Shown one piece after another: positions 1-60,764 of a stretch of 64,000 nt of DNA. This DNA is from Candidatus Altiarchaeales archaeon (lineage in GTDB: Archaea > Altiarchaeota > Altiarchaeia > IMC4 > QMZM01). The stretch spans positions 1 through 64,000 of the forward strand of contig CAVVMY010000013.1 of the NCBI GenBank assembly GCA_963749405.1. Reading direction: 5' to 3'. The stretch's first letter is position 1; each line of letters begins with the position of its first letter. The notes beneath the pieces are model-generated. The model worked only from the letters and a program-made list of their open reading frames with translations. It was not told the DNA's origin and made no database searches. The translations under genes and the position numbers were made by a program.

Positions 1-3002
<3,002 letters not shown>

Positions 3003-3003
3003 G

Positions 3004-4823
3004 TTACACCACGTCCTGTAATTTCAGTCTTGGGGCGATGCCCATGCTCTTCATCTCGTCCAGCAGGAGCTTGAACGCGTAACTCATCTCGACCGAGTAG
3101 ATGTCGGTCTCGTTGCCGCAGGCAAGGCAGCGGGTCATGTTGCGCTTGCGGTCGAGCATGGCGACCATGCCGCAGTGGGCGCAGACATATTCGTTCACCT
3201 TGTCCGATTCATCGAGCAGGCGTTCCTTGAGTGCCATGGCGGCGCCGTGGCCGATCATGACATCCCGCTCCATCTCACCGAACCGGAGACCGCCTTCACG
3301 GGCACGGCCTTCGGTCGGCTGGCGGGTCAGGACCTGCACCGGTCCGCGGGACCGGGCGTGCATCTTGGACGAGACCATGTGGTAGAGTTTCTGGTAGTAG
3401 ATCACGCCGATGTAGACATCGGCCTTGAAGACTTTGCCGGTGATGCCGTCATACATGACCTCCCGGCCGTTGTGGGAGAAACCGAGTTTCTTTAAGGATG
3501 CACGGATATCCGCCTCGCTCTCGCCGCCGAATGCGGTGCCGTTGATGCGCCGGCCTTCGAGGGCGCCGACCTTGCCGCCGATCATCTCGAGCATGTGCCC
3601 GATGGTCATACGGCTCGGGATCGCATGGGGGTTGATGACGAGGTCGGGGGTGAGGCCGCTCTCGGTGAAGGGCATGTCTTCCTGGTGGGCGATGAGGCCG
3701 ACGACACCCTTCTGCCCGTGCCGGGACGCGAACTTGTCGCCGACTTCCGGGCACGCGGAGGTCGCGGGTCCGGACTTTCACGAGGCGGGAACTGTTCTCG
3801 CCCTCGGTGATGATGACCGTGTCGACAATGCCGTGCTCGTTGCTGCGCATCGTGACGGAGGTGTCGCGGCGCTTCTCGACCGCAATCAGTTCACCGGACG
3901 GTTCCTCGAGGAACCGCGGCGGGGAGGTCTTGCCGATCAGCACATCCTTCTCTGCGACAACGGTCTCGGGGTTGATCACGCCGTCTTCGTCAAGGTTCTT
4001 GTAGGACTCGGCACCGTGGGCACCGGCAACGTCCTCTTCGGGGACTTCGATCCGGTCGATCTGGCCGCCGGGATACCGGCGCTCTTCGCCTTCGTAGGTC
4101 CTGAAGAAGTGGGAACGGCCGAGGCCGCGCTCGATCGAGGCCTTGTTGAAGATGAGCGCATCTTCAATATTGTAGCCTTCGTACGAGAGGATGGCGACGA
4201 CGAAGTTCTGGCCTGCAGGCCGGTCGTCGGATCCGATCAGTTCCGAGGTCTGGGTGTGGGTGAGCGGTTTCTGCACGTAGTGGAGCAGGTGGCCGCGGGT
4301 GTCGGGGCGGAGCTTCATGTTCGCCGCGCCGAAACCGAGCGCCTGCTTGACCATGCCTGCGCCCATCGTGACACGCGGACTCGCATTGTGCTCGGGGAAC
4401 GGGACGTGTGCCGCACCGATACCGAGGATCAGGGAGGGGTCGATCTCGAGGTGGGTGTGGTCGGGGGTCGCGTTCTCGGGAAGTCCATGGCGATGAGGAG
4501 GTCTTCCTCCTCTTCTGCATCGATGAACTCGATCATGCCGCGCTGGACAAAGGAGGAGATATCGATCTCCTTCTTCGCGAGCTTGCTAGAGGTCCTCGTC
4601 GGTGATCAGGGGCTCGCCGTTTTTCAGGACGATGAGGGGGCGGCGCGCACGGCCGCGGTCGGTCAGGATCACGACATCGCCGTTGTATTCCTTGTGGGAG
4701 ACGTTCACTTCCGGCGAGATCGCTCCCTGCCGGCGCATGCTGCGGATATTGGCGACCAGTGCCTTCGGGTCGTCGACAAGGCCGATGAGGGCACCGTCAA
4801 CAAATACGCGTGACTTTCTTCAT
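3004..4823 (-). CDS. rpoB1: RNA polymerase subunit B' (C-terminal half of split RpoB), with several frameshifts (at start codon homopolymer, ~4366-4800, ~3700-3800)
   Basis: C-terminal ORF 3004..3675 (…[51 protein letters not shown]) and ORF 3449..4366 are RpoB' segments. Another frame at ~4600-4800 gives the B' N-terminus [40 protein letters not shown]. The ATG overlaps the B'' stop (ATGA) at 4821-4825. Confidence 0.85.
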
Positions 4824-5350
4824 CAGACCTCACCCCGGATGTGCTCGACACCAAGGTTATGCAGGATGCGCATGATCTCTTCCTCGTCATCGACACCCTT
4901 GCTGATCTCCACCATCTGGGCAAAGTTCTTGACAAGGCCGCAATTCGGCCCTTCGGGAGTCTCGCTCGGGCAGATCCGGCCCCACTGGGTCGGGTGCAGG
5001 TCACGGGCCTCGAAATGGGGCTGTGAGCGCGAGAGCGGGGAGATCACGCGGCGGAGGTGCGAGAGCACGGCCATGTGGTCGACCCGGTCGAGGAGCTGCG
5101 AGACACCGGTCCTCCCGCCCACCCAGTTGCCGGTAGCAAGCGGGTGGAGCAGGCGTTCGGTGAGCACGTCGGCACGCACTGCGGTCGCGATCGAGAGATC
5201 GCGGTGGCGCATGCTGGCGCGCTCGAGCTGGTACTTGATATCACGGGTGAGCCGGTTGAGCGAGATACGGAAGAGGTCCTCCATCAGGTCGCCCGCAAGT
5301 TTCAGCCTCTTGTTCGAGTAGTGGTCCTTGTCATCGATCCTGCGCCGGCG
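4823..5350 (-). CDS. rpoB2: RNA polymerase subunit B'' C-terminal fragment, 5'-truncated at a sequence breakpoint near 5350
   Basis: ORF 4823..5284 (…GRICPSETPEGPNCGLVKNFAQMVEISKGVDDEEEIMRILHNLGVEHIRGEV). In-frame upstream sequence RRRRIDDKDHYSNKRLKLAGDLMEDLF matches the B'' DDRDHYGNKRLKLAGDL motif and ends at an in-frame stop at ~5351. No B''-like sequence lies beyond that. Confidence 0.8.
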   Translation of the reverse strand, partial: RRRRIDDKDHYSNKRLKLAGDLMEDLFRISLNRLTRDIKYQLERASMRHRDLSIATAVRADVLTERLLHPLATGNWVGGRTGVSQLLDRVDHMAVLSHLRRVISPLSRSQPHFEARDLHPTQWGRICPSETPEGPNCGLVKNFAQMVEISKGVDDEEEIMRILHNLGVEHIRGEV

Positions 5351-5415
5351 TCATAAGCGAACTCGACTCGCAGACAGGGAATGCCCAAGCAGGCTCAACA
5401 AGCGACCTGACGGCG

Positions 5416-6474
5416 TTGAAGACGGTCTTCCAGGACAACGGAATCACTCTCTCAGACTATGCCCGCGTAGAAAAAGGCAGCGGCAAATGGTCGGTCATCG
5501 ACGGGGACAGAAATTACGACATCTACGCAGACGACAAAGGCGGACTAAACGTAATAAACATGGGCTTTGCTTCAGTCTCACTGGCAGAGGACGACTTCAA
5601 AAACGGCCTGCTACAGGTAAAGACCTTCTTCAAAGACCTGCTGATACCCATGTCACCCAATGTAGTAGAAAACAAATCAGCAGCAGACCCGGTCTGTTAC
5701 ACCATGAATATCACATTCAGGAGGCCGTCAATACTATCTGTGGAGGTGTCCCCGAGCGGGTACACGATACCTGCAGGAACACGGGTCACTGCCACCTCTA
5801 AACTCGCACTCTATGACGGAACGCCCCTGCCCAACGAGAAAATATATGTAGACTTGTCAGGGACAAATATATGGGACCTCTCGCCCCAGGGAGTGTACAA
5901 GGACTACATGTTCTCCTACGAGGAGCTAAGCAGCAGCACAGAGCAGCAGGCAAGGCTCAGAGATTATCTTATCAGTCTGGGATATCCAGACATCGCCCAG
6001 GAATTGGACGGAGCTCAATACTCTGCAGACGGCGCAGACAAGATAGAGATAACTACATCAGGTGTTGACCCGACGCTTGAAGCAGTAGACGGCGTATCCC
6101 ACCTCAAGCTCGACAATGGCCAGGACATCATAGTCGGAGTAACCGAAAACTACAACGGCAAACTACTGGTATACGAATCAGAGGAACAGAAAAGCCTCGC
6201 ATATGCGATAACGGACGCAAGCGGCATCGCCAAATACTCATTTATACCTACGGGCAGCACCTCAGTGGGCAATTCCTATCCTGGAGGAAACATATCGTCG
6301 CCTACCCAGGCCAGCGTAGGGATACACACTGTTAGCGTCAAGTCGCCTCTTTTCTCAGGGGAGTTCCTGCTCCTGGCGCTGATACTCGTATTCGGGGTGT
6401 TCTCCTACAAATACTTCGGAAGCAGGAAACTTGACTTCTATTCATGGTGGAGGGACTTCAGAGGCAGAAAATGA
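5416..6474 (+). CDS. Surface/exported protein with C-terminal transmembrane anchor and basic tail (possibly 5'-truncated by the breakpoint)
   Basis: 352-aa ORF ends GEFLLLALILVFGVFSYKYFGSRKLDFYSWWRDFRGRK, a TM plus basic tail of the archaeal C-terminal anchor type. No N-terminal signal peptide is visible and the frame stays open upstream into the rpoB'' remnant. Its stop overlaps the next gene's start (ATGA at 6471-6474). Confidence 0.5.
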   Translation: MKTVFQDNGITLSDYARVEKGSGKWSVIDGDRNYDIYADDKGGLNVINMGFASVSLAEDDFKNGLLQVKTFFKDLLIPMSPNVVENKSAADPVCYTMNITFRRPSILSVEVSPSGYTIPAGTRVTATSKLALYDGTPLPNEKIYVDLSGTNIWDLSPQGVYKDYMFSYEELSSSTEQQARLRDYLISLGYPDIAQELDGAQYSADGADKIEITTSGVDPTLEAVDGVSHLKLDNGQDIIVGVTENYNGKLLVYESEEQKSLAYAITDASGIAKYSFIPTGSTSVGNSYPGGNISSPTQASVGIHTVSVKSPLFSGEFLLLALILVFGVFSYKYFGSRKLDFYSWWRDFRGRK

Positions 6475-7808
6475 AAAACAAAATAATAACATTCCTGGTA
6501 ATAGCATTATTCTTCGCACCCTACATGCCAATACCAACGGTCGCAGCCGCGGACGCGGGAGAGCATGGAAGCACGAACCCCCTGAGCTATTATAACTACC
6601 TGAACAAGGACTGGAACGATTTCAGCGAATTCATGACTGCGGAAAACGCGGAGCATGCAAGACTCATATTGTATCTGCTCGTGCTTGGAATGTATACCTG
6701 GAACGTAACCTCAGACATCCTGCTAAACCTGCAGAACTATGTGCTCCTGAATCCCTCGCCTCTGGAGCCTTCGGTCCTGAACGTGATGAACTTTTTTATT
6801 TTCAACCTGCAGATAGCCTACATACTGGCCATCACAGCAACCGCATTCTACATAATATTCGCATCAACGCACCCCAAGAAACGCGCAAGAGCCAAGGGCA
6901 TGCTGGGAAGACTCATAATCGGAATGCTCCTCGTAAGCATATCCCCCTACCTCATCAATATATTCTTTAATTTCTCCTCAGGGCTCACGGCAACCATACT
7001 GGCCCAGACAGACAGCTCAGTCGCAGCCACGGTCTACACAGACCTGCTATGGAAAACATACTGGCCCAGCGTAGTAATAATAATGGCTCCGATGATAGGA
7101 CACTCGCTGGAATACAACACCCACCATGCGATAGAGCACGGAGTAATGCCCAACCTGGAAACACAATACGCAAAAGAACTCCAGATGGGCACCCCAAGCG
7201 AGCAAAGAGACCTTGCAGTAGAAGACCTGCTGGCCCAGGGGAATCCCGAGGCGATAATATCCGATACGGCAGACCAGATGATGAAAGACCAGCAGAGCCT
7301 CATTAAGAGTAATGCCGAGACAATGGCTCAGTCAACCGTGTGGGGGAAACTTGAGGGTGTACTGGATAGCGGACTTATCAAAATCGAGCCCAAACCTGAG
7401 CAGACCTTTGCATTTCTCATGGCCGAGATAGCGATGATATTTGCCTTGTACGGCTTCCTTGCACTGCGCTTCCTCATGCTCATGATATGGACCATACTGT
7501 TCCCGCTGAGCATATTCCTATCCACCTTCGAGCTCACAAAAGGCGTAGGCAGGAACATGATAGAGCAGACAGTATTCTGGACGATACTGCAGATATTCTA
7601 CGCCGTGAGCATAGACACCATAGCCGTAGGATTCATGATCCTGCCTTCGGGATTCAATTATTTCGGCATTGGCTTGCAGTTCGGGGGATTTGAGGTGTTC
7701 TTCGTCAGTTTCTTTTCCATAGCTGCCGCACTGCTGCTGATGCTGACTCCGATTTTGATGCTCATGCTGTCTCAGAGGTTGACGCAGATGGATTTGAATA
7801 TGGGTTAA
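6471..7808 (+). CDS. Polytopic membrane protein, paralog 1 of 5 (signal peptide, N-terminal ectodomain, ~5-6 TM)
   Basis: MKNKIITFLVIALFFAPYMPIPTVAAADAG signal peptide. Shares motifs with the next four ORFs: IAYILAITATAFYIIFASTHPKKRARAKGMLGRLIIGMLLVSISP and WTILFPLSIFLSTFELTKGVGRNMIEQTVFWTILQIFYAV. Confidence 0.75.
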   Translation: MKNKIITFLVIALFFAPYMPIPTVAAADAGEHGSTNPLSYYNYLNKDWNDFSEFMTAENAEHARLILYLLVLGMYTWNVTSDILLNLQNYVLLNPSPLEPSVLNVMNFFIFNLQIAYILAITATAFYIIFASTHPKKRARAKGMLGRLIIGMLLVSISPYLINIFFNFSSGLTATILAQTDSSVAATVYTDLLWKTYWPSVVIIMAPMIGHSLEYNTHHAIEHGVMPNLETQYAKELQMGTPSEQRDLAVEDLLAQGNPEAIISDTADQMMKDQQSLIKSNAETMAQSTVWGKLEGVLDSGLIKIEPKPEQTFAFLMAEIAMIFALYGFLALRFLMLMIWTILFPLSIFLSTFELTKGVGRNMIEQTVFWTILQIFYAVSIDTIAVGFMILPSGFNYFGIGLQFGGFEVFFVSFFSIAAALLLMLTPILMLMLSQRLTQMDLNMG

Positions 7809-7827
7809 GAGGCATAGACACAAAAAT

Positions 7828-9021
7828 ATGTCAAACAAGAAGATAGTAACCGGGTTTTTGGTATTGGTTGTAGTCTCCTGCACGTTTAGTGCCTATGCTG
7901 CGGAAGAGACAGGGGGTGGAAATATTCTTAGCGGTGTTTTTTCAACCCCGTCTGCGGAAGAGACCTTTTGGTTTGTTAAGAGGAGTTTATATGCCTTCAC
8001 ATCCCTTGACTACAGCAAGGAGGATATGGGGTTCATCGTGAATAATCTGTCAGACCTCATACTGCTGAACCCGGACGCGCAGGGGTCTGAGGTGCAGAAC
8101 GGCCTTGGATTTATCCTGGGGCTTATACAGCCGCTTTATGTCTTATCGATAGCTGCCACCGCCTTTTATCTGATATTCGTGACGGGCTCTCCTTCGGGAA
8201 GGGCGAAGGCTAAGTCTCTTATGAAAGACCTGGTGGTCGGGATGATAATCATATCTCTTTCATCCCTCCTACTGGAAGCACTTCTTAATTTCTCAGCCAC
8301 GGCAACAGATGCGGTTTTAAAACAGACTGACATCTCCGTGGTAACGGATAACCTGCAGATAGTATTCGGCTCTCCGAGTGATAAGTCGGTAACGGACGTA
8401 GCAGTCAACTCCTTGCTGAGCGAGTCATCCATGGGCTTATTGGGCGACTCAACTGCTATGCCGGATTATTTAATGTCCCATTCATGCACCCTGTGCCTTA
8501 TGCATTTGATGGCGACATTTGTTGAAATCGAATTGGGATACTATACCTTCCTTCCGTTCATGCTGATGATATGGGGGCTGGGGGTATACTTTTTCCTGCG
8601 CTTCGCCATGGTGACTCTGTGGCTTATCCTGTTCCCTCTCTCCATACTCCTATACTCTTTTGAGACTACGAAAAGCGTAGGCAGGAACATGCTTGAGCAG
8701 ACGATAATGTGGATATTCATACAGGTATTCAACGCAGTCATCGTGGTGGCAATAGCTCTATGCATAATACAGAGCAAACCCGGTTACATGACCGTTCCGG
8801 CTCTTCCTCAATGGGTATCACAGCCTCTGGCCTCTGGCCTGGTCCAGGCCGTGATGGGGGCAATACCAGTGAGCGCTGTTGGCCCGGCACAGGATGTCAC
8901 TACTCTGATTGCCGGCAAGCTCTCGATGCCGTTGGTAGAGTTCATACCCTTCGTAGGCTGCTTTGTGATGCTTATAGCACCCTTATTCATTATGAGGCTG
9001 TTCAAAGGATTCCTGCCCTGA
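7828..9021 (+). CDS. Polytopic membrane protein, paralog 2 of 5
   Basis: MSNKKIVTGFLVLVVVSCTFSAYAAEE signal peptide. Motifs LYVLSIAATAFYLIFVTGSPSGRAKAKSLMKDLVVGMIIISLSS and WLILFPLSILLYSFETTKSVGRNMLEQTIMWIFIQVFNAV. Confidence 0.75.
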   Translation: MSNKKIVTGFLVLVVVSCTFSAYAAEETGGGNILSGVFSTPSAEETFWFVKRSLYAFTSLDYSKEDMGFIVNNLSDLILLNPDAQGSEVQNGLGFILGLIQPLYVLSIAATAFYLIFVTGSPSGRAKAKSLMKDLVVGMIIISLSSLLLEALLNFSATATDAVLKQTDISVVTDNLQIVFGSPSDKSVTDVAVNSLLSESSMGLLGDSTAMPDYLMSHSCTLCLMHLMATFVEIELGYYTFLPFMLMIWGLGVYFFLRFAMVTLWLILFPLSILLYSFETTKSVGRNMLEQTIMWIFIQVFNAVIVVAIALCIIQSKPGYMTVPALPQWVSQPLASGLVQAVMGAIPVSAVGPAQDVTTLIAGKLSMPLVEFIPFVGCFVMLIAPLFIMRLFKGFLP

Positions 9022-9022
9022 A

Positions 9023-10348
9023 ATGAAAAACAAAAAAATATTCATATTGATGGCCGCAGTCGCGCTAATGATGCTAGCATCAGCCCTGGCAGCGGAAGCC
9101 CAGGATACCTCCGGGGGAACCGGCAGCGGAGGAACACCAGCATTATCTGCGCCTTCAGAAACGCCGGCATTACCCCCCGGCCCAAAACCCCTGGAGCTTC
9201 CACCGGGAGAAAGTCTCCCACAACTCCCATCAGGAGAAAGTTTTCCGCAACTCCCCTCAGGGGAAAAACCGGCTCTTCCGCCGGGCAGCCCACCCGGCTG
9301 GGAAGACCCAATCGCACAAGCGGCTGAAGGAGCTGCCGAAGCAACTGCAAAATATTTCGTCGTCGACGTCGCAGTAAGGCTGATATACCAATACAGCGTA
9401 ATGTATCCCTGGATGCTTACATACGGAGAATCCTTCTCCAACAACTACGAAAAAGCAATACTTGCAAATCCGTCGCTCCTGGACCCCTCATCCGAAGGAT
9501 ACAACCCCCTGATAACAAATGCCATCGCATTCTCCGTAAGAATCATGCTGCCCTTCTACGTCATGGCCATAGTCCTCACAGGCGCTTACATGATATTCAT
9601 TTCCAACTCCCCTGAAGCCCGGGGAGATGCAAAAAACCTCCTTAAAAGGCTAATCATCTCAATGGTCGCATTCTCCATGTCACCCCTCATAGTCGAAACA
9701 ATGCTTGCAACATCCCAAAACATATCATCAGCAATCATAAGCCAAGCCGATCCGACAAACGTAAAGATGGTCCTGGACGGAGGCATATGGGGCTCCTATA
9801 TTATATTCTGCAAACTTGGGATTACAGATCTGGAGATAGCAATCGCTTACTGGACTTCTCTATTTGTCATGGCCTGGCTCCCCTATATGGTGATAGGGAT
9901 GAGGCATATAATGATCACCTTGTTCTGCATGGCATTTCCCGTAGGAATAGCCCTCTACTCCTTTGTCTACTTAAGGAACATAGGCAGAAAGATACTCGAA
10001 CAGACAATAGTCTGGATATACCTGCAGGCATTTATTGCGGTAGCAATAGTCGTCATATCCCTTGGCGCAAGCTACTATTACATACTCCCCCCGGACCAGA
10101 ACCCCAAGCTCACCAACTTCCCAATACCCGCAGTAATGGACAAAGGCGCTCTATCACTTATACAGATGCTCGGCATAAACATCGGAGCAAGCCAGACACC
10201 TGTAACAATACCCGGCTTAGGGGTCGCACCCCCGATGGTATTCGGCATCACCTCAATCCTTTCATACGCAATCGGCGCCATGGCCTACGGACTACTCGTG
10301 GCAGTTCCGTTCATGATGCTGCGGCTGCTGAATAATTTCCTGCCTTAA
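9023..10348 (+). CDS. Polytopic membrane protein, paralog 3 of 5 (with Pro-rich repeat insert after the signal peptide)
   Basis: MKNKKIFILMAAVALMMLASALAAEA signal peptide, then PPGPKPLELPPGESLPQLPSGESFPQLPSGEKPALPPGSPPG. Motifs FYVMAIVLTGAYMIFISNSPEARGDAKNLLKRLIISMVAFSMSP and FCMAFPVGIALYSFVYLRNIGRKILEQTIVWIYLQAFIAV. Start lies 2 nt after the previous stop. Confidence 0.75.
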   Translation: MKNKKIFILMAAVALMMLASALAAEAQDTSGGTGSGGTPALSAPSETPALPPGPKPLELPPGESLPQLPSGESFPQLPSGEKPALPPGSPPGWEDPIAQAAEGAAEATAKYFVVDVAVRLIYQYSVMYPWMLTYGESFSNNYEKAILANPSLLDPSSEGYNPLITNAIAFSVRIMLPFYVMAIVLTGAYMIFISNSPEARGDAKNLLKRLIISMVAFSMSPLIVETMLATSQNISSAIISQADPTNVKMVLDGGIWGSYIIFCKLGITDLEIAIAYWTSLFVMAWLPYMVIGMRHIMITLFCMAFPVGIALYSFVYLRNIGRKILEQTIVWIYLQAFIAVAIVVISLGASYYYILPPDQNPKLTNFPIPAVMDKGALSLIQMLGINIGASQTPVTIPGLGVAPPMVFGITSILSYAIGAMAYGLLVAVPFMMLRLLNNFLP

Positions 10349-10354
10349 GAAAGA

Positions 10355-11410
10355 ATGGAAAAACAAAAACAAAAAATCATAGCATTAATGATAATCGGAA
10401 TGCTGATACTCCTGCCCTGGGTATACGCAGAAGAAGACGACGAGGACACGGAAGACGAGGGAGGGTCATTATCACAGATAGCCGGCGCAGAAACAGTCAA
10501 GCTGTTAGCCAAGGCATGGATAGACGGCGCAGCAGGAGACCTATACGACGTCCTGGCAAAGATCACAGGCCAGCTGCGGGAATACATAACGGCAAATCCG
10601 CCCATGAACGACATAAAGCGGATACAGGCCTTCTTCATAGGACTCATGCAGCCCTTCTTCATACTTGGAATAGTTCTCAGTTCCGCATATCTCCTGCTGT
10701 ACTCGGAATCCCCGAGGGGGAGAGCCAAGTCCAAAGCAGCCCTTGTAAGACTCATATACGCACTCATACTTGTCTCCATATCCCCCCTGATAATATGGCT
10801 GCTTCTGACCTTTTCTTCGAGCCTGACAAATGCGATACTGGACAACACCGACCTCTATTACGCAGGGCAGGTAATATATGTCGGAGCCCATTATATGTTC
10901 AATATGTTCTTCTGGCTAACCATGATACATCGTACCGGAGGAGTAGAACTACTACTGCTCTGGGAAACATTCATGCTAATCATAAACTTTGTAATAGCCA
11001 TGAGATACCTCCTCGTAATACTCTGGTGCGTCATGTTCCCTGTAAGCCTTCTCTTGTTCTCTTTCACACCTACAAAAACCATAGGAAAAAAATTCCTACA
11101 CCAGACATTCCTATGGACATTCGTACAAGTAGGCTGGGCCCTCGCAATCATGCTCATATGCGCATCAGTCAAAGGAATGGACGCAGTAATGCCCGGCTAC
11201 CCCATCGGAAAGATCGGCATCACCTGCATATTCCTGTTCCTTGCAACCCCAAGGGTGGTATTCGGGCTGATGGACTGGCTGAGCCTCGGCGTAGAGGTAG
11301 TGGAGATAGTAAACGCAGCGCCGCTGTCGATGGGCGCGCTCACATTGGACGAGATGAAGGTCGAAAGAGAGGTCATCCTGGAAGAGCCCTCGCTGGAGGG
11401 CGTATTATAA
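10355..11410 (+). CDS. Polytopic membrane protein, paralog 4 of 5
   Basis: MEKQKQKIIALMIIGMLILLPWVYAEEDDEDTEDEGG signal peptide. Motifs FFILGIVLSSAYLLLYSESPRGRAKSKAALVRLIYALILVSISP and WCVMFPVSLLLFSFTPTKTIGKKFLHQTFLWTFVQVGWAL. Confidence 0.75.
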   Translation: MEKQKQKIIALMIIGMLILLPWVYAEEDDEDTEDEGGSLSQIAGAETVKLLAKAWIDGAAGDLYDVLAKITGQLREYITANPPMNDIKRIQAFFIGLMQPFFILGIVLSSAYLLLYSESPRGRAKSKAALVRLIYALILVSISPLIIWLLLTFSSSLTNAILDNTDLYYAGQVIYVGAHYMFNMFFWLTMIHRTGGVELLLLWETFMLIINFVIAMRYLLVILWCVMFPVSLLLFSFTPTKTIGKKFLHQTFLWTFVQVGWALAIMLICASVKGMDAVMPGYPIGKIGITCIFLFLATPRVVFGLMDWLSLGVEVVEIVNAAPLSMGALTLDEMKVEREVILEEPSLEGVL

Positions 11411-11414
11411 GACC

Positions 11415-12677
11415 ATGAAAAAAACAATAAAATACTCCGGCCTAAAGGCCGGAGTATTGCTCTCAAAAGCGGCAGAGATAGGTATGGATAAACCCCTGCC
11501 TCAAAGGCAGGGGTATTCTGCCGCTTTTGTGATAAACAAAAAAACAAGAAAAAAAATCCTGATATCAGCATCAGTAATCCTCGTCATAGCATTGATCATC
11601 AATACTTCGGCGATAATCCCCGCAGCCTTGGCCTTGGCTGCCGAGTACTTCACCGAAAGATACCAAGCGGCATTGCCCGGCGCTGTAGCGATGGAAGCAG
11701 GCCACTGGCTTTCTGCTGCAACTATCCGCATAATATTTGCGTACTTCGTATACTGGGGGTTCTTTTCAAAGTACGCGGACTTATGCAACCATTTGCCTGA
11801 GCTGATACTAATGAATCCCAAGATTATGATAGCAGATGATCGCGGCAACTACTACGGAAATCCGCCCATGGAAGAGCTTGTCGATTCGTTCATCCGCATA
11901 ACCCAGCCGTTTTACGTCTTTGCCATAATGCTGGTCGCATTCTACCTCCTGTTCGTCTCAGGTTCGCCTCTGGGACGGGCCAGGGCAAAGTCCAGCCTGA
12001 TAAGACTGGTCCTCTCAATGGGCGTTATAGTGCTAACCATACCCATCATCCAGCTCTGCCTGGACTTCTCGGAAGTGCTTTCAGGGAGCATCCTGAACAT
12101 GCAGGACATAGCACCCGGCATAGCAGTCCTCCAGGAAGCAGTCTACGGGCTATGGCAGAACTATTTCACCGCAATCGTCTTCAACTACTGGAACTCGGTA
12201 TATCTGCTGATGTTTTCCGCAGTGATGTTCTTCCTGCCATTCGCAATAATTGCGCTGAGATATTTTATGATAATATACTTCACCGCACTCTTCCCGCTGA
12301 CAGTGCTATTCTACGCCTTCTACTTCACCAGAAACATGGGCGGACACATATTCAGAGAAACATTCCGATGGATATTCATCCAGCCGCTCTGGGCCATGAT
12401 ACTCGTGGCAATATCTGCGGCCGCAGTCTCGATGCCCTTCATAAACACCGACGCCACAGCACGCATGGGCTTCGGCCTTGCAGGATTCATAGTGCTTACA
12501 ATAGCGCCCCTCATAGTGGTAAAAGTCATGGACTGGCTCGCAATGCTCATGATAATGCTGACGGCAATAGAATTCCCGGGCATGCACGGCGTAGTAGGCA
12601 TGATAGACGAATTACAAGTAGAAGGTCCGGAAACACAGGAAATAACCCCGCCGCCGCCCATAAGGCCCAGGGCCTAA
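11415..12677 (+). CDS. Polytopic membrane protein, paralog 5 of 5 (true start uncertain; possibly GTG ~11529 downstream of a structured element)
   Basis: Motifs FYVFAIMLVAFYLLFVSGSPLGRARAKSSLIRLVLSMGVIVLTIP and FTALFPLTVLFYAFYFTRNMGGHIFRETFRWIFIQPLWAM. The first ~38 codons of the ORF overlap nested hairpins that recur in a non-coding context at 59028-59174. Confidence 0.7.
   Translation: MKKTIKYSGLKAGVLLSKAAEIGMDKPLPQRQGYSAAFVINKKTRKKILISASVILVIALIINTSAIIPAALALAAEYFTERYQAALPGAVAMEAGHWLSAATIRIIFAYFVYWGFFSKYADLCNHLPELILMNPKIMIADDRGNYYGNPPMEELVDSFIRITQPFYVFAIMLVAFYLLFVSGSPLGRARAKSSLIRLVLSMGVIVLTIPIIQLCLDFSEVLSGSILNMQDIAPGIAVLQEAVYGLWQNYFTAIVFNYWNSVYLLMFSAVMFFLPFAIIALRYFMIIYFTALFPLTVLFYAFYFTRNMGGHIFRETFRWIFIQPLWAMILVAISAAAVSMPFINTDATARMGFGLAGFIVLTIAPLIVVKVMDWLAMLMIMLTAIEFPGMHGVVGMIDELQVEGPETQEITPPPPIRPRA
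11432..11528 (+). ncRNA. Structured intergenic element, copy A (terminal hairpin ATACTCCGGC-loop-GCCGGAGTAT plus outer stem AAAAGCGGCAGA…TCTGCCGCTTTT enclosing inner hairpin CCCCTGCC-TCAAA-GGCAGGGG)
   Basis: Read directly. Same architecture and near-identical first hairpin recur at 59028-59174. Confidence 0.45.
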
Positions 12678-12735: not shown

Positions 12736-14025
12736 ATGGCAGCAATACCCATACAGGAAGAATCCCAGGCCACAATCGAACGCGATAGAGAACAGGAAAA
12801 ATTAATAAGAGTGCAGGGAGGATTCTCCTTAGACCCTCAGACCCTGGCAGTGATAATAGACGCAGCCCTGATAATCTTCTTCCTATTCTTCTACCCACCC
12901 AACCAGCCAGTCTCTTTCCCCTACGGAATCAGCATCCAGCCAAACGTCCTCATACCCCTGCTGACAGTGCTTCTGATAGGCCTGATAATAAACAAATCCA
13001 TAGTCAACTTCATGGAATACGAACGAGGCGTCGTATTCAAATGGGGCAAATTCAACAGGATAGCAGGCCCAGGCTGGGAAATAATATTCCCCCTGATGGA
13101 GCGATACATCAAAGTCGACCTGCGGCTGGAAGTAATAAGCCTGCCGCCCCACGAAGTAGTCACAAAAGACAAGGTACGCTTCCTCGTATCCCCTGAGATA
13201 TTCATGTACGTCTCCAACCCAAAAGACGCCATACTAAACGTGCAGAACTACAAGAAAGCAACAATACAATACGTAACAAGCGCCCTCACCCACACACTGG
13301 GCGACTCGACCTCAGACTACATAGTCGCGCACATGAACGAAATATCCGACACCCTCGGACACTCAGTAGAACACATAACAAACACGCCCGGAAAAGAATG
13401 GGGCATCGTCGTACCCAGAGTCAAACTGGCATTCATCCGCTTCCCGGACGAGGTACAGTCCGCAATGCACAAAAAAGTAGCAAGCGAACAACTGAAACTC
13501 GCAGCCCATGAAAAAGCCGAGGCAATAAAAGTGGAAATAGACGCAATAAGAGAAGCAGGAGGAAAACTCACAGACCCGGCCCTGACATACATGTACCTCG
13601 AATCCCTCGACAAAGTAGCCAAAGGAAAAGCCACAAAAATAGTCCTACCCCTCGAAATATCCAAGATGGCAGAAACCATCACCAGAAGAACCAGCGGAGC
13701 AATAGGAAGCGGAAAACAGGAATTAAACCTGCCACCCGACGTAGTCCAAAGATATGCAGAGATCGCAGACAACTACGACAAAAGGCTCAAGGACATAGAA
13801 GGCAAACTCACAGCCTCCGAAGGAAGAGAGGAGCGCAACCGGATGCTAAGAGACGAATACAGGAGAAAGGAGTTGGAAGACAAAACCGGAAAACCAGAAG
13901 ACTCCGCGGAAAAAGAAGGACCGGAAAATACGGAAAAACCGCAGACAAGCCGGAAAGAAGACAGCGAATTAAAAGAATACAAAGACCGGATACGCGAGAT
14001 AAAGAAGAGAGTAGGCATAGACTAA
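12736..14025 (+). CDS. SPFH/band-7 (stomatin/prohibitin/HflK-C-like) membrane protein with long charged coiled-coil C-terminal tail
   Basis: N-terminal TM segments, then FKWGKFNRIAGPGWEIIFPLMERYIKVDLRLEVISLPPHEVVTKDKVRFLVSPEIFMYVSNPKDAILNVQNYKKATIQYVTSALTHTLGD (SPFH core). E/K/R-rich tail to 429 aa. Confidence 0.8.
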   Translation: MAAIPIQEESQATIERDREQEKLIRVQGGFSLDPQTLAVIIDAALIIFFLFFYPPNQPVSFPYGISIQPNVLIPLLTVLLIGLIINKSIVNFMEYERGVVFKWGKFNRIAGPGWEIIFPLMERYIKVDLRLEVISLPPHEVVTKDKVRFLVSPEIFMYVSNPKDAILNVQNYKKATIQYVTSALTHTLGDSTSDYIVAHMNEISDTLGHSVEHITNTPGKEWGIVVPRVKLAFIRFPDEVQSAMHKKVASEQLKLAAHEKAEAIKVEIDAIREAGGKLTDPALTYMYLESLDKVAKGKATKIVLPLEISKMAETITRRTSGAIGSGKQELNLPPDVVQRYAEIADNYDKRLKDIEGKLTASEGREERNRMLRDEYRRKELEDKTGKPEDSAEKEGPENTEKPQTSRKEDSELKEYKDRIREIKKRVGID

Positions 14026-14030
14026 AAAAA

Positions 14031-14300
14031 ATGGCGGAGAAAATAGACACAGACAACATATACATAGACGAGGAGGAGAACTTTGTCGCAGTGAAGGTGA
14101 ATACGAAACTGTACAGGATACATGCCATAATGAATGCTGCGGATGAGTTCCTGGAGGAATCAAATTTCATAGTGGACGGCGACCCTGACAAGGAGATAAT
14201 AGTCAAATTCGTCCCCAAGAGGCGGTTCAGCCGCCAGCAGCTCGCAGACCTGGCCCATAAGTTCTGCACCCTCCTTGTCACATTCAGCTCAACCCGGTGA
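14031..14300 (+). CDS. Small hypothetical protein (89 aa, acidic)
   Basis: ORF MAEKIDTDNIYIDEEENFVAVKVNTKLYRIHAIMNAADEFLEE..., tightly packed between the SPFH and bPH-like genes. No recognisable motif. Confidence 0.35.
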   Translation: MAEKIDTDNIYIDEEENFVAVKVNTKLYRIHAIMNAADEFLEESNFIVDGDPDKEIIVKFVPKRRFSRQQLADLAHKFCTLLVTFSSTR

Positions 14301-14922
14301 AAAAATGACTTTCCAAGAAGAGATAAAAAAGCTTGACTACAAGGGAATAGGACTCCTGATGGCAATCGCGCTGGTCCTGGGAGTGATATACGGAGCCTTC
14401 TTCATACACAACATGTTTTTTGGGATAGTTGCGATGGTCATAGCAGTATTCGGATGCTATTACGTCATGTCGTCGTTCTTTGAAGAAGAAAAACCAGTCA
14501 GCCTGGAGCCAGGAGAGAAAATGATCCTGCGCACATTGGACCGCGCCTATCTGCTGCTGCCGAAAAAAGGAGGATTTCTCACCACGCAATCGCAGAGAGA
14601 CCTTTCCGTGTACCTTACCAACAGGAGGATATTTGCCAAGAAATCTTCCGGGGAAACGGTATTCGAAAAACCTATAACTGACCTGTCGGGAGTTACGTCT
14701 GAGAAGAGGCTCATGACAAGTTATCTGCGCCTGAGGTATTATTCTGAAGGAAAAGAAAAAGACGTCCTGCTATTCGTCGGGGACAGCGGCATCTGGATAA
14801 AGAGGCTGGGCGAACTGGGCGTGAGAGAAAAAGACGAATTCGAAACAGACAAGGCGGAAAAAGACAAATTCGTGGAAGACTCAAAGAAATTGAAAAACAA
14901 GATAGACCGAAAAACAAAATAG
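14296..14922 (+). CDS. Membrane protein with two TM helices and a bacterial-PH-like (DUF304/YdbT-like) domain; start probably MTFQEE at 14296
   Basis: GIGLLMAIALVLGVIYGAFFIHNMFFGIVAMVIAVFGCYYV TM hairpin, then a ~120-aa beta-rich domain and a K/E tail. ORF 14275 is in the same frame. Confidence 0.45.
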   Translation, partial: GEKMTFQEEIKKLDYKGIGLLMAIALVLGVIYGAFFIHNMFFGIVAMVIAVFGCYYVMSSFFEEEKPVSLEPGEKMILRTLDRAYLLLPKKGGFLTTQSQRDLSVYLTNRRIFAKKSSGETVFEKPITDLSGVTSEKRLMTSYLRLRYYSEGKEKDVLLFVGDSGIWIKRLGELGVREKDEFETDKAEKDKFVEDSKKLKNKIDRKTK

Positions 14923-14930
14923 GAGAGAAT

Positions 14931-15644
14931 ATGACAGAAAACAAGGTTACCCTAAATAGAAAATTCTTCGCCTTGCTGTCGATACTGCTGGCATCCGCAG
15001 CAGTCATGGAAACACATGCGGACAGTTACTACGTATGCATGAGCGGAAAATGGACCCTTGCGGCGATGAGTCAATACTGCGCATCCGACTGCTACGACCT
15101 GGACACCGCAACCTGCTCGGCGCAGCCTGCCCCTACAAGCAAGATTAGTTTAACGTCCGACTGCGGCGCAGACTCAAGAGCATTAGGCGGAAAATGCGTA
15201 GTCGTAAAAGCCGGTGAATCGGCTCCGCAAGATACGACAGCGTCGCCTGCGGCCTTTTCCACAACTACGACAACTGCATCCTCAAGTTCCCCGTCAGCTC
15301 AATCCGGCGCAGAAGAAGCAGGCTTTCAGACAGCGAATTGCCAATGCACCTGCGGCGCCAAGACAATAAATGCGACAGGAATCTACAAGCCAGGATCCTT
15401 CCTGGGCATAACCAACCCCCTTGACACGATGACTGCTGCGACGAAGTGTCAGGAGCAGTGTGCGAGGACATGCGGCGGATTCACCACCTGCGCGAATCAG
15501 ACGGACGCTGATTGCGATACCTGCTGCACGAATTATTGCGCAACCAGCTACAGCAGTGGCTCGGGGACGACGTCATCTGGGAGTGGTACTGAGAACCATG
15601 CAATACCTCATGCAAGAGCACCTGTAAATTCCGGGGAACCGTGA
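14931..15644 (+). CDS. Secreted Cys-rich, Ser/Thr-rich protein
   Basis: Signal peptide FFALLSILLASAAVMETHA. About 20 Cys in patterned spacing (CQCTCGAKT, CQEQCARTCGGFTTCANQTDADCDTCCTNYC). STTTTTASSSS linker. Confidence 0.55.
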   Translation: MTENKVTLNRKFFALLSILLASAAVMETHADSYYVCMSGKWTLAAMSQYCASDCYDLDTATCSAQPAPTSKISLTSDCGADSRALGGKCVVVKAGESAPQDTTASPAAFSTTTTTASSSSPSAQSGAEEAGFQTANCQCTCGAKTINATGIYKPGSFLGITNPLDTMTAATKCQEQCARTCGGFTTCANQTDADCDTCCTNYCATSYSSGSGTTSSGSGTENHAIPHARAPVNSGEP

Positions 15645-15850
15645 ACGGGATAACTGACATAATCTACATGGCGGCAGGCATCCTTGGAGCGCTCATGATA
15701 GCAATACACGGTATAAGGATGGCAACCTCACAGGACCCGAATGAAAGGGACGCATCCAAAAGCAGCATAATCCATGTCATACTCGCGCTGATCATAATCG
15801 CCATGGCGGCGGCCCTTGTCAACATGTTCATAAGCATGGGCGGGGTATGA
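15641..15850 (+). CDS. Small two-TM membrane protein (69 aa), translationally coupled to the upstream gene (4-nt overlap)
   Basis: MNGITDIIYMAAGILGALMIAIHGIRMATSQDPNERDASKSSIIHVILALIIIAMAAALVNMFISMGGV: two hydrophobic helices with a short polar loop. Size and shape resemble VirB2/TrbC/CedA1-type subunits (inference only). Confidence 0.5.
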   Translation: MNGITDIIYMAAGILGALMIAIHGIRMATSQDPNERDASKSSIIHVILALIIIAMAAALVNMFISMGGV

Positions 15851-15860
15851 AACGGGCCTT

Positions 15861-17621
15861 TCAGAATTTTTTTATGTTAACGTGTCCGTCGGCGGTCAGT
15901 TTTTCAATTATGTATTCTACAGCTTCAGGCGTGAGCCTGGTCTCTTTGGCCAGTTCGTCGACTGTCTTTTTGCCGTCGACTCTTTCTATTACCTTTATTA
16001 TCTGAGGATACTTGGCATACTTTAATTTATCCAGAAGGCCGATCTTTTTCTTAAATTCTGGCACCTCTGGCCTGGGGCGCTGCTGGGGCTTCTGTGCCGC
16101 TGCTTGGGCTGCCTGGATTAGTTCCTCTTTTTTGATTACTATCTCCCGGGTATTCTGCGGCTCCTGCGGTGTCTGCTGCGTCTTTGGTTCTTCCTGCGGC
16201 GCGGCTGAATCGGGCAGAGGCTCTTTTGATTCCTGTGGCTGGGCTGCTAACTTATTTTCATCAGGCGCATTCCCAGCAGTTTCCTGCGGTGCTCCTCCTA
16301 TGCCTACAAAGTGTTTCTTTCTCTTGTCCCATCCCCAGTATACGTCGGCATTTTTATTAAGATCGCGTATCTCTGATGTGGTCTTGTCCACGAGCTCCTC
16401 GGATGATTCGTTACTGGCTTCGTTTGTGATCGGTGCCTGTTCCTCTGCTGCCGGCGATTCTGGTTCTGTGTTCGCAGGGGCTGTGGCGTTCTGCTCGGGT
16501 GCTTCTTCCTGCAACTGCGCAGGTGCGGTTGCCGGGGGGCTTTCGTTGCTTGGCTTCTGGCTGCCCTCAGACGGCGTCTCGGACTTTTTCGCTTCTTTCT
16601 TCTTTTTAAGCCTCTGGAGTGTGGCATTTGCCCTCGTTAGCCATTCATCACTAGAGGCTTTGGGCGTTTGAGCAGCAGATGACTCCTCCCTATCTAAGAT
16701 TCCCTTTTGTGTAATGCGTTGATGCGTCCGCCCAAGTATGGCATCGCGCACCTGTTCATTGAAATCCTCTGACTGCGTCTTCTCTGACGAAGCAGGCGTT
16801 TCTTCCTGCTCCTCGGTTTCCGCAGCAGGCTCCGGGGTTTCTGGCTCTGCTTCTTCCTTCTCTTTCTCTTCTGCCGCAGCCATGGGAGATTCTTCAGTTA
16901 TCCTCTCCCAGGGATCCTCGCGGAGTATCATCTCATCAAGGGATTTTTCGTCAGGGGAGTCTTCCATGCTCTTTGAAGGCTCAGCATAACTTTTCTGAGA
17001 ATCCATGCCCTCTGCTTGGGCATCGCCGGCCTGTGCAGTCTGTGCTTGCTCCTCGGAAGACGGTTTAGATTCCTTAACAGTTTCTGCAGGCTCTGGGCTG
17101 GCTGCCGGGACTTCTTTATGCTCTGACTTCTCTTCCCCCGAGACTTTATCCTCTGAGGGCTCTTCTGGGGCAGGAATATCAACGTTTACCTTGTAGGAGC
17201 GGTCCCTTAGGTCTCCTTTCAGTATCATCTCCAGATAAGGCTTCTCCCTTTCCTCGAACTGCTTCCATTTAGCTTCGAAATCCTTCCACTGTGCCTCAAG
17301 ACTGAAGAGACCTTCTTTGCGTACATCCACATCCACTCTCCCGATATCCCCAAGGGTCTTTCCAAGGTCTCTTACCAGTTCAAGAAGAGACGAGTCCTTC
17401 CCGCCCAGGTACGACTTAAAGCCTTCATCTGAAAGCTCATAGGCAACAACTTCGCCGGAGGACTCTTTTATGTAATCCAATATCCCCTGAAAAGCCTCTT
17501 CGCCGAATATCTGGGTCGACTCGGCAGGGCATTTCAGGGACGCAGCTATTATGAAATTATTCTGCAATATAAGCTCCGCCTCATAAGATCTCTGCTCACA
17601 GGACATCTTCATCCGGACCAC
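15861..17621 (-). CDS. Highly acidic low-complexity protein with folded N-terminal domain and C-terminal winged-helix-like domain
   Basis: 586 aa. N-terminal ~110 aa structured (…GEVVAYELSDEGFKSYLGG…). Long E/P/S/A/Q-rich acidic middle. C-terminus KKIGLLDKLKYAKYPQIIKVIERVDGKKTVDELAKETRLTPEAVEYIIEKLTADGHVNIKKF is HTH-like. Confidence 0.5.
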   Translation of the reverse strand: MVRMKMSCEQRSYEAELILQNNFIIAASLKCPAESTQIFGEEAFQGILDYIKESSGEVVAYELSDEGFKSYLGGKDSSLLELVRDLGKTLGDIGRVDVDVRKEGLFSLEAQWKDFEAKWKQFEEREKPYLEMILKGDLRDRSYKVNVDIPAPEEPSEDKVSGEEKSEHKEVPAASPEPAETVKESKPSSEEQAQTAQAGDAQAEGMDSQKSYAEPSKSMEDSPDEKSLDEMILREDPWERITEESPMAAAEEKEKEEAEPETPEPAAETEEQEETPASSEKTQSEDFNEQVRDAILGRTHQRITQKGILDREESSAAQTPKASSDEWLTRANATLQRLKKKKEAKKSETPSEGSQKPSNESPPATAPAQLQEEAPEQNATAPANTEPESPAAEEQAPITNEASNESSEELVDKTTSEIRDLNKNADVYWGWDKRKKHFVGIGGAPQETAGNAPDENKLAAQPQESKEPLPDSAAPQEEPKTQQTPQEPQNTREIVIKKEELIQAAQAAAQKPQQRPRPEVPEFKKKIGLLDKLKYAKYPQIIKVIERVDGKKTVDELAKETRLTPEAVEYIIEKLTADGHVNIKKF

Positions 17622-18887: not shown

Positions 18888-18932
18888 CGCAATTTAACCC
18901 CTTAATCCAAGAATTATTAGTATCGTTAGATA

Positions 18933-20492: not shown

Positions 20493-20570
20493 GGACAATA
20501 TTTAAATACTTACGTCCTAATATTAAACAATATTCTAAATAGTGGAGTATCCTAAAGTATTATACCAAAG

Positions 20571-24631: not shown

Positions 24632-24658
24632 TGTCCAGTTTAACCTTGCAAGCCGAAA

Positions 24659-29336: not shown

Positions 29337-29509
29337 CTTTTACAAGCCTCTTATATACTTTAAGATAATACTAAAAAGATACTATAATAGATAGAGAATA
29401 TATGAGATTACAGCCTAAAAAAGCCCGAAAAACCCCATAAAACACCCATAAGACACACAGGATTTAAAGATAAAAACGGAAGAATATTAACGCTATTTCT
29501 AACCAAAAA

Positions 29510-60074: not shown

Positions 60075-60764
60075 ATGAAAAGGTTATCTCCCCTGTTTGT
60101 TTGTTTTTTTGTTCTGCTTCTGGTTACTGCGTCTTTTGCCCAGGACTCTGATCGTGAGGCTGTGTCGAAAGGTGCTGGCATACGTCATATCTTCGGCAGC
60201 TTCACTTGTAATATTTTCTGTTTTGTTTTTTTCTCTGTGGCTGGTGTGGCCTGCATTGTCATTATCTATTCTGGTTTGGGTTATCTCATGTCTAGGGATG
60301 TTTCGGAGAGGGACAATCTTAAGAGGAGGATCGTCTATGTTTTTGTGGGCTTGGTTCTTTTCGTGATTATGGTGCCTTTGGTGAATTATATCTCTGGTCT
60401 TGGCTCTACTAATCTGTCTCCTTTTGGCTGTAATTGCTTGAATGGCAGCATGGAGGAGTTTGCGGTTCCAGATGAGGGAACTACTTTGCCGGGTTTGAGG
60501 GCTATAATAGTTGCGCCTAAGGAGGGGGATGAGTTGGATATGGACAAGCTTGTGTCGTTCATTGGCAAGGGGTATGGCGGCACTGCTCCGTATAGTTATA
60601 AGTGGACTTCCAGTCTTGACGGCAACATAGGTTCAGCTGATACTTTTATGAATAATCTCTCACGTGGGAATCATACCATCACTTTAGAGCTTACTGATAA
60701 TGTTGGCAATTATTCTTCTGCTCAGGTGCATGTAAGCGTTATTGTGCCTAAGCCTCATCCCTAG
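60075..60764 (+). CDS. Secreted/membrane protein with C-terminal Ig/PKD-like domain
   Basis: Signal peptide, internal TM, and C-terminus …GNHTITLELTDNVGNYSSAQVHVSVIV, a PKD-like strand pattern. Confidence 0.4.
   Translation: MKRLSPLFVCFFVLLLVTASFAQDSDREAVSKGAGIRHIFGSFTCNIFCFVFFSVAGVACIVIIYSGLGYLMSRDVSERDNLKRRIVYVFVGLVLFVIMVPLVNYISGLGSTNLSPFGCNCLNGSMEEFAVPDEGTTLPGLRAIIVAPKEGDELDMDKLVSFIGKGYGGTAPYSYKWTSSLDGNIGSADTFMNNLSRGNHTITLELTDNVGNYSSAQVHVSVIVPKPHP

Follow-up and report, generated by a model that had tools for sequence, protein, structure and literature searches.

Five tandem VirB6-like membrane proteins beside a pilin gene in Altiarchaeota suggest a pilus or channel apparatus not yet described

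What do five neighbouring genes for related membrane proteins do in an archaeon, and to which known family, if any, do they belong? The question arises in a 64,000-nucleotide stretch of Altiarchaeota DNA (hereafter the window), where five tandem, co-directional paralogous genes occupy positions 6471-12677 of the + strand. Altiarchaeota, abundant and uncultured carbon fixers of the subsurface, possess a double membrane that is rare among archaea and surface appendages that are unexplained. A literature search returned nothing linking them to components of type IV secretion systems (T4SSs).

The five genes were compared with orthologs in related Altiarchaeota loci (L001 and others); related loci were sought through paralog-2 orthologs. 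Paralog 1 (6471..7808, 445 aa) lies in an open reading frame that is open from 6444 and is read from the ATG at 6471, where the L001 ortholog begins to align; its external loop carries an insertion of ~110 aa. Paralog 2 (7828..9021) encodes 397 aa, paralog 3 (9023..10348) encodes 441 aa with an extended, Pro-rich N-terminal ectodomain, and paralog 4 (10355..11410) is the minimal version with 351 aa. Paralog 5 ends at 12677 and probably starts at the GTG at 11529 (382 aa) rather than at the ATG at 11415 (420 aa). The genes are separated by only 1-19 nt, except for a 118-nt spacer before paralog 5.

Alignment of the five proteins with MAFFT yields 23 invariant columns. Pairwise identities range from 23 to 34%, and pairwise BLASTP E-values, scaled to a database of 1e9 residues, from 1e-27 to 8e-7, so that the similarity is far beyond chance. 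Three motifs recur in order from paralog 1 to paralog 5. An N-P motif is encoded at 6744-6758, 8062-8076, 9461-9475, 10589-10603 and 11808-11822; a short basic loop motif (STHPKKRARAKG / TGSPSGRAKAKS / SNSPEARGDAKN / SESPRGRAKSKA / SGSPLGRARAKS) at 6864-6899, 8182-8217, 9602-9637, 10703-10738 and 11958-11993; and an FP...Q bundle motif, which forms the TrbL-like core described below, at 7500-7592, 8632-8724, 9935-10027, 11036-11128 and 12291-12383. An earlier note on this DNA had aligned such motifs by eye, and MAFFT places all those it quoted at equivalent positions. Its consensus for the C-terminal bundle fits paralogs 1 and 2 well, whereas paralogs 3-5 match it only at F, P, F, G, T, W and Q. 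The topology it had proposed is likewise reproduced by hydropathy and AF2 models, which predict an N-terminal signal/anchor helix, an ectodomain, a transmembrane (TM) helix, the short basic loop and a second TM helix, followed in the C-terminal half by a variable loop and a bundle of three further long helices. The paralogs are thus predicted to be polytopic with a large extracytoplasmic region, where orientation follows the positive-inside rule. Their most variable parts are the external loops and ectodomains.

The five paralogs belong to a far larger family. An exhaustive HMM search recovered at least 462 cluster representatives, where a word-indexed homolog search gave 18-23 matches and badly under-reported the family. 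Every member that bears a taxon name is assigned to Altiarchaeota. The motifs are kept across 100 family representatives: the proline of the N-P motif is present in 100% of them, the loop reads S84 x S87 P85 x G76 R96 A70 x A87 K93, and the core reads R100 Y73 ... F89 P99 ... T79 (R/K)92 x x G98 ... W88, where each number is the percentage of the 100 representatives that hold the residue. This sharp conservation supports the earlier proposal that the short loops serve a particular mechanism and are more than generic membrane anchoring. With more than 460 cluster representatives behind it, the signature offers a basis for a family model with which to annotate Altiarchaeota genomes.

Comparison with known families places these proteins, at a distance, with VirB6. 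No Pfam or NCBIfam model reaches threshold on any of the five paralogs, and TrbL (PF04610) gives no match to them at E<=1. In the wider family, 5 of 100 members match TrbL at E<=0.01, the highest scores among relatives are 23.4 and 20.7 bits, below its cutoff of 25.9, and two relatives carry precomputed TrbL_3 matches. Structural models adopt the fold of the solved VirB6 protein TrwI of plasmid R388 (sequence NC_028464), which ranks first among PDB fold matches for two of the paralogs, and the superposition on TrwI and DotA extends beyond the hairpin to the whole protein, over ~200 residues. In profile-profile comparison with hhalign, family profile A5 reaches a probability of 50.5% (E 1.6e-4, 59 columns) against profile A7, built from VirB6 proteins, and aligns a helix-turn-helix core in which F-P...T-R of the family stands against G-P...T of VirB6. 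The shallow profile A3 reaches a probability of 2% against A7. Searches with profiles A1 and A5 against PDB sequences gave no significant VirB6 match, only low-complexity noise in the case of A5, and hhalign against the single TrwI sequence gave none either. The N-terminal hairpin alone is pilin-like: the loop of the pilin encoded in the cluster aligns with the paralog loops, and T4SS_pilin matches of only 13-16 bits occur in three of the five paralogs, with paralog 3 reaching E 0.012 over residues 174-225.

We regard homology to VirB6 and VirB2 as supported by this evidence. Because fold matches, TrbL and T4SS_pilin matches in relatives, the precomputed TrbL_3 matches, hhalign and the T4SS gene neighbours point to the VirB6/TrbL branch, we consider it probable that the five proteins are very divergent archaeal VirB6/TrbL relatives, forming an anciently diverged, Altiarchaeota-specific subfamily of T4SS-derived membrane platform subunits. 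The earlier note had called the family distinct. It is indeed real and sharply conserved, and its five members in the window stay below the Pfam and NCBIfam thresholds, but it is probably a remote branch of VirB6/TrbL with a VirB2-pilin-like N-terminal hairpin, and in that measure it would join an annotated family.

The array lies within a wider gene cluster. The array is preceded by the C-terminal ~375 aa of a giant surface protein (5349..6474, +), which measures ~2200 aa in relatives and whose left part is lost in the window at an assembly join (5348/5349); in tblastn, residues 1822-2192 of the L001 protein match window positions 5344-6471. The protein ends in a single TM anchor (residues 306-336 of the 352-aa ORF), and its gene also precedes the array in L004-L008. 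Downstream lie a gene for an SPFH/Band 7 protein that begins with two TM helices (12736..14025, +; PF01145, 88.3 bits) and, travelling with it, one for a small 89-aa protein (14031..14300, +) that is 86% identical to its L001 ortholog and has weak HxsD-like matches only. These are followed by a ~205-aa protein that combines a TM hairpin with a soluble domain at its C terminus (14305..14922, +), which is conserved in every cluster, with orthologs in L004, L006, L007 and L008, and for which a Pfam search gave no match. A VirB2-type pilin gene (14931..15850, +) then encodes a signal peptide, a Cys-rich ectodomain and a C-terminal T4SS_pilin hairpin (15641-15850; PF18895 43.5 bits against a cutoff of 26.6, TrbC 24 bits); in the window a frameshift near 15590 breaks the gene in two, and in L001 it forms one 228-aa ORF. 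Pilin-domain genes are also present in the L001, L006 and L007 clusters. A conserved divergent neighbour in the closest relatives encodes an acidic protein of 586 aa that carries a winged helix at its C-terminal end (15861..17621, -; weak HTH_24/MarR_2 matches) and is 45% identical to its L001 ortholog. A KaiC-like ATPase adjoins the cluster in L001 and was set aside as a core part since it is absent from the window.

The composition of the array is itself conserved. In all five genomes with a wholly readable array, the five-gene set is present with one-to-one orthology by position. Lying next to a conjugative-type pilin gene, this fixed set suggests that Altiarchaeota possess a pilus or channel apparatus not described so far. 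No VirB4-family ATPase gene was found in the window by a P-loop ORF search or within 10 kb of the array in L001-L008, and no VirB3, VirB4, VirB5 or VirB8 gene was found adjacent to the array. Among related Altiarchaeota loci, L023 and L009 do co-encode a VirB4-family ATPase, in L009 as a DUF87/AAA_10/TraG P-loop protein together with a PrgI-like one.

By analogy with VirB6, the most likely function of the five proteins would be that of a platform or channel for pilin recruitment and assembly. Each would begin with a signal/anchor helix and a helical ectodomain ending in I-L-x-N-P, followed by the VirB2-pilin-like TM hairpin, whose short basic loop S-G-S-P-x-G-R-A-K-A-K would be cytoplasmic. 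Past the variable external loop, a TrbL-like core, R-Y ... F-P-x-T-I-F-L-Y-S-F-x-x-T-R-x-x-G-R ... Q-T ... W-x-F-x-Q, would carry a second short basic cytoplasmic turn before the final TM helix. The chromosomal, probably T4SS-derived cluster comprises the giant anchored surface protein, the five VirB6-like proteins, the ~205-aa two-TM protein and the fusion of VirB2-type pilin and ectodomain, with the SPFH protein as a part in some lineages. In the cytoplasmic membrane, the five VirB6-like proteins may recruit VirB2-like pilin subunits via TM-TM contacts, and the recruited subunits could be assembled on this platform into a pilus-like surface structure, a role paralleling that of VirB6 at the base of the T4SS stalk. 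Since VirB6 forms a pentamer in R388 (PMC12624023), a hetero-pentamer is conceivable. More specifically, one copy of each ortholog might form a hetero-pentameric ring, an asymmetric version of the homopentameric stalk base, at the foot of a hitherto unseen T4SS-derived surface filament or cell-cell channel in the double-membraned Altiarchaeota, which possibly uses an ATPase encoded elsewhere or none; we offer this as a tentative proposal and think it rather unlikely to hold in full.

Other uses of the five genes have to be weighed against a shared platform. They might be alternative VirB6-like modules, each serving a different pilin, giant protein or substrate, or serving variation, an idea raised for the expanded VirB6 gene sets of Rickettsiales (PMC2653234). 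In Rickettsia the individual functions of the five virB6 copies are unknown (PMC2653234), other Altiarchaeota clusters hold one, two, three or four family members, so that five is not obligatory for the family, and the greatest variability falls in the external loops and ectodomains. We nevertheless hold alternative use to be unlikely, if a serious contender, because in this cluster type even deeply diverged genomes keep the five in constant number and order and with the same orthology, and the almost abutting genes suggest co-expression instead. An array of enlarged pilin-type subunits or anchors of a surface filament, in place of a VirB6 platform, appears improbable. It would account for the hairpin, and it has parallels in the tandem arrays of 2-11 divergent VirB2 genes of Patescibacteria (PMC12102498) and in the pilin hairpins of the present loci, which are fused to large PKD or Cys-rich domains. 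However, small two-helix pilins (PF18895, PF04956) measure ~70-120 aa when mature, and the paralogs have 351-454 aa and six helices; each has four membrane helices beyond the hairpin, it is the whole protein that superposes on TrwI and DotA, and a polytopic protein with cytoplasmic turns would be hard to extract into a filament.

Least probable of all, to the point of being very doubtful, is a membrane family unrelated to T4SSs and acting with the neighbouring SPFH protein, for instance in a microdomain or protease-regulating complex. The earlier note had raised an SPFH partnership, and the window and two relatives do have the SPFH gene directly 3' of the array (it is present in L001/L004 and ERZ1426824). 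Yet L006, L007 and L008 lack it in a cluster that is otherwise the same, and these make up three of the five genomes with a wholly readable array. SPFH was rejected as the core partner on synteny, and the obligatory co-occurrence expected of an SPFH-associated complex (NfeD/YqiJ-like partners) breaks down in the same loci. What stays constant beside the array is the pilin-domain gene, the giant surface protein and the two-TM protein, and fold and profile evidence points to VirB6.

Comparison with described systems brings out what is particular to the VirB6-like set. Like TrwI/VirB6 of R388 (PF04610, TrbL), these are polytopic helical membrane proteins with a large external region, encoded beside a VirB2-type pilin. 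Unlike TrwI, they are archaeal, come as five fixed paralogs rather than one gene, show no significant direct sequence match to it, and have far more strongly conserved hairpin loop and N-P motifs. The Ced and Ted systems, compared by their description, are also archaeal, chromosomal, domesticated T4SS derivatives, and the N-terminal part of their VirB6-like protein CedA/TedA is homologous to the cognate VirB2-like pilin (PMC9905601), as the hairpin of the present family is related to the pilins of its cluster; they differ in having just one VirB6-like gene and, close to it, a VirB4-like ATPase (CedB/TedB), where the Altiarchaeota cluster has five genes and no ATPase nearby. RvhB6a-e of Rickettsia are likewise five divergent VirB6-domain genes with variable flanking regions, conserved across their lineage (PMC2653234), but these bacterial proteins are far longer, at 674-1154 aa, are picked up by the TrbL Pfam model, and belong to a T4SS that is complete even if its genes are scattered. 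The two five-fold sets are independent duplications. DotA of the Legionella Dot/Icm T4BSS is much larger (857 residues in the matched PDB chain) and has no detectable sequence similarity. Patescibacteria T4SSs with VirB2 arrays share the PF18895 pilin family, tandem divergent paralogs, a chromosomal location and the lack of a relaxase (PMC12102498), but their arrayed genes are small pilins beside VirB4, whereas those of Altiarchaeota are VirB6-sized. A connection with the grappling-hook hami was considered and is at most a bare possibility. None with this cluster could be shown, and the hamus subunit, which is beta-rich, S-layer-like and 97 kDa in mass, is encoded in another contig context and is not related to pilins (PMC4460559).

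The conserved chromosomal cluster would lengthen the short list of domesticated archaeal T4SS derivatives beyond Ced and Ted, and in it the five places of the VirB6 pentamer may have become genetically distinct in nature. If so, the cluster would give direct access to what each VirB6 protomer does and to the 5:6 mismatch in symmetry with VirB3/VirB4.

Two further features of the window were recorded. A second VirB2/TrbC-like pilin-domain protein of 229 aa is encoded elsewhere, at 60075..60764 (+; TrbC 28.8 bits against a cutoff of 27.9, T4SS_pilin 28.3 bits against 26.6). The spacer between paralogs 4 and 5 (11411..11528, +) is missing in the L001 ortholog cluster, where the two genes lie 4 nt apart; in the window it is strongly structured, with a 12-bp hairpin and a long nested stem (RNA fold -63 kcal/mol, z -9.2).

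The five tandem membrane-protein genes (paralogs 1-5) are nearly touching ORFs on the same strand (+), located at 6444/6471-7808, 7828-9021, 9023-10348, 10355-11410 and 11415/11529-12677, with intergenic gaps of 19, 1, 6 and 4 nt when paralog 5 is counted from 11415. The start of paralog 5 is probably the GTG at 11529. MAFFT alignment of the five products, which are 23-34% identical, yields 23 invariant columns, among them N-P in the motif ending the ectodomain and P-x-x-R-x-x-x-K in the loop motif; the C-terminal motif contributes F-P ... F ... G ... T ... W ... Q. BLASTP comparison of paralog pairs gives E values of 1e-27 to 8e-7 (nominal database 1e9 residues). Every peptide quoted in the earlier note was found at equivalent alignment positions, and the topology proposed there is backed by hydropathy and two AlphaFold models. 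These indicate an N-terminal signal/anchor helix and a helical ectodomain, followed by a TM helix, a short basic turn, a second TM helix and a variable loop, which carries an insertion of ~110 aa in paralog 1. The C-terminal part consists of two long helices connected through another short basic turn, T-K/R-x-x-G-R/K, before a final TM helix. The earlier observation is thereby confirmed, with the qualification that the long consensus proposed for this bundle describes paralogs 1 and 2 and does not extend to all five.

Four independent lines of evidence (fold, sequence, hairpin and gene context) point to a relationship, including a pilin-like N-terminal hairpin, with VirB6/TrbL, which spans the membrane several times in type IV secretion systems. 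For the AF2 model of paralog 4 (pLDDT 77.8), Foldseek ranks 1-4 are all TrwI, the VirB6 of plasmid R388, with probabilities of 0.99-1.0, and the remaining matches of comparable Z span far fewer residues. None of the five window paralogs reaches a Pfam threshold; weak T4SS_pilin matches in three of them are placed exactly on the TM-loop-TM hairpin. Among 100 family members, 33 match T4SS_pilin (best E 4.7e-7) and five match TrbL (best E 1.7e-5); P0191, a member at another Altiarchaeota locus (L009), scores 23.4 bits against TrbL, below the cutoff of 25.9. An HMM from the five-paralog group alone matches two Altiarchaeota proteins (E 6e-29 and 3e-30), both of which have precomputed PF19590 TrbL_3 hits. 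The 100-member family profile aligns with a profile assembled from 11 plasmid VirB6 proteins at E 1.6e-4 and 50% probability, pairing R-Y...F-P-x-T-I-F-L-Y-S-F-x-x-T-R of the family with A-K...G-P-I-F-I...F-x-x-T of VirB6; a shallower family profile gave no alignment with the same VirB6 profile. The earlier reading as a distinct family with a specific mechanism is partly supported: the family exists, yet it falls within the VirB6/VirB2 superfamily.

The family HMM matches bona fide pilins at the hairpin segment (E 5.6e-7 and 1.6e-5), and the loop of the cluster pilin, TSQDPNERDASKSS, aligns to S-x-S-P-x-G-R-A-K-A-K with P, R and K in common. Such a hairpin-pilin relation is already known for CedA/CedA1 and VirB6/VirB2 (PMC9905601). 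The cluster pilin ORF (15641-15850) scores 43.5 bits against T4SS_pilin, above the threshold of 26.6, and 24 bits against TrbC. In GCA_049299895.1 (locus L001) the corresponding sequence forms the C-terminal end of a Cys-rich secreted protein of 228 aa, encoded by a single ORF. The window gene (14931-15850) is broken by a frameshift near 15590: frame 3 stops at 15644, and from 15599 onward it is frame 2 that shows homology. This could reflect a sequencing error, decay to a pseudogene or programmed frameshifting. A second pilin-domain protein (60075-60764; 229 aa) has an extra C-terminal domain and scores above threshold against both TrbC (28.8 bits) and T4SS_pilin (28.3 bits). Its neighbours are a PLD-like nuclease-family gene (60777-61361, -) and a gene for a 547-aa Cys-repeat membrane protein (61457-63100, -).

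The cluster opens with a giant surface protein, followed by the five paralogs, an SPFH gene with an about 88-aa protein gene, a ~205-aa 2-TM protein and finally the pilin-domain protein. Clusters with five paralogs also occur in GCA_049299895.1 (L001/L004) and in the far more divergent MAGs L006, L007 and L008. The listing for ERZ1426824 has identical gene order, with five genes at the array position; its shorter twin contig ends inside the fourth paralog. The top BLAST match of each window paralog is the same-position gene in all genomes compared, and we therefore infer that the five-fold duplication is old and each copy individually maintained. The SPFH and about 88-aa genes are present in some genomes only, and their absence from the cluster in L006-L008 leaves the proposed SPFH partnership unsupported. 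The KaiC-like ATPase of L001 was not found in the window. All loci examined pair the family with giant proteins of 1500-2600 aa, and at another Altiarchaeota locus (L024) a gene called as 8720 aa (18341-24653) follows the family members. A divergently transcribed gene lies 5' of the giant protein in L001 (1008-2003, -), L006 (1033-3930, -) and L007 (1-3476, -), and encodes a hairpin weakly similar to T4SS_pilin (E 1.7e-4 in L001). The L006 copy carries PKD and transglutaminase-like domains, and large-ectodomain pilin-hairpin proteins therefore flank the cluster on both sides.

Database proteins with 100% identity and every named relative trace to MAGs of Candidatus Altiarchaeia, Altiarchaeales or Altiarchaeota, and the window elsewhere encodes archaeal housekeeping genes (Mch, PheRS, FtsZ and ThiL-like AIRS). 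Word-indexed homolog searches returned only about 20 relatives apiece. An exhaustive HMM search built on a 56-sequence alignment recovers 462 cluster representatives at E<=1e-3, of which 315 reach E<=1e-10 and 119 reach E<=1e-30; many of the recovered proteins are 600-2000 aa long with the family domain N-terminal. Across 100 representatives, the most conserved positions are the motifs first noticed by eye.

Genes for VirB4, VirB3 or a coupling protein were found neither in the window nor within 10 kb in the five-paralog cluster loci. At other Altiarchaeota loci, family members are joined to a full T4SS core. L009 encodes a pilin (45.5 bits), a 1878-aa protein with an N-terminal family domain, P0191, a PrgI/TraC-like (VirB3-like) protein and a VirB4-like ATPase (DUF87, AAA_10, TraG P-loop), and L023 has a pilin, two family members and PrgI/TraC-like genes. 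Cluster types other than the five-gene array hold 1-4 family members each.

In R388, VirB6 is a pentamer in the inner membrane at the stalk base, and its TM helices help bring in VirB2 pilins for pilus assembly (PMC12624023). We consider it likely that the five proteins form a VirB6-like membrane platform or channel. By homology, their most likely role would be within a domesticated, T4SS-like apparatus for polymerising or presenting the cluster's ectodomain-bearing pilin proteins, where the strictly conserved loops and TM faces may contact pilins, lipid headgroups or cytoplasmic partners. The apparatus may serve DNA movement as in Ced/Ted, protein movement or adhesion. A hetero-pentamer containing each paralog once is attractive because the number five is conserved, the order fixed and the orthology one-to-one. 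This reading is tempered by related clusters with fewer copies and by Rickettsia, where the stoichiometry of five VirB6 paralogs is not known (PMC2653234), and we regard such an assembly as rather unlikely.

The family shares the fold of VirB6, and presumably that of CedA and TedA, and would work like all three. It differs in that formal Pfam membership failed and in that canonical systems are defined by an adjacent VirB4, which the window cluster lacks. No literature tying Altiarchaeota to T4SS components was found, nor any link between the hami literature and the five-paralog cluster; hami are built from an S-layer-like beta protein whose anchoring is unknown (PMC4460559). The finding amounts to one lineage-specific VirB6-like subfamily that is fixed as an array of five genes within a chromosomal pilin cluster without VirB4.

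Several further features of the window were observed. Positions 1-5348 are 62-63% GC, versus 46-52% in the remainder, and carry on the minus strand pieces of archaeal RNA polymerase A'/B genes split over several frames; truncation at 5348/5349 affects both rpoB and the gene for the giant surface protein. A contig from an independent assembly (L025) is 100% identical to 5349-9270, and to the left of that point its giant ORF goes on at 51% GC, which makes a chimeric assembly join at 5348/5349 very probable. Because of this join, the divergent upstream gene is lost from the window. Paralogs 4 and 5 are separated by a highly structured 118-nt spacer (11411-11528; -63 kcal/mol, z -9.2), in which a long nested stem accompanies a perfect 12-bp hairpin, UACUCCGGCC-UAAA-GGCCGGAGUA. 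L001 has no such spacer, its corresponding gap being 4 nt, and a similar hairpin lies at 59031-59050, directly 3' of a methyltransferase gene. The spacer could be a terminator, a processing element or a small inserted repeat. An 1167-aa ORF (21043-24546) consists almost entirely of Lys/Glu-rich coiled-coil repeats with no Pfam match, and its start overlaps the 3' end of an OMP-decarboxylase-like ORF (20571-21215). Directly 3' of tRNA-Cys (29509-29584), a gene at 29633-31549 encodes a 638-aa serpin (PF00079, E 5e-130) with an N-terminal extension of ~270 aa.
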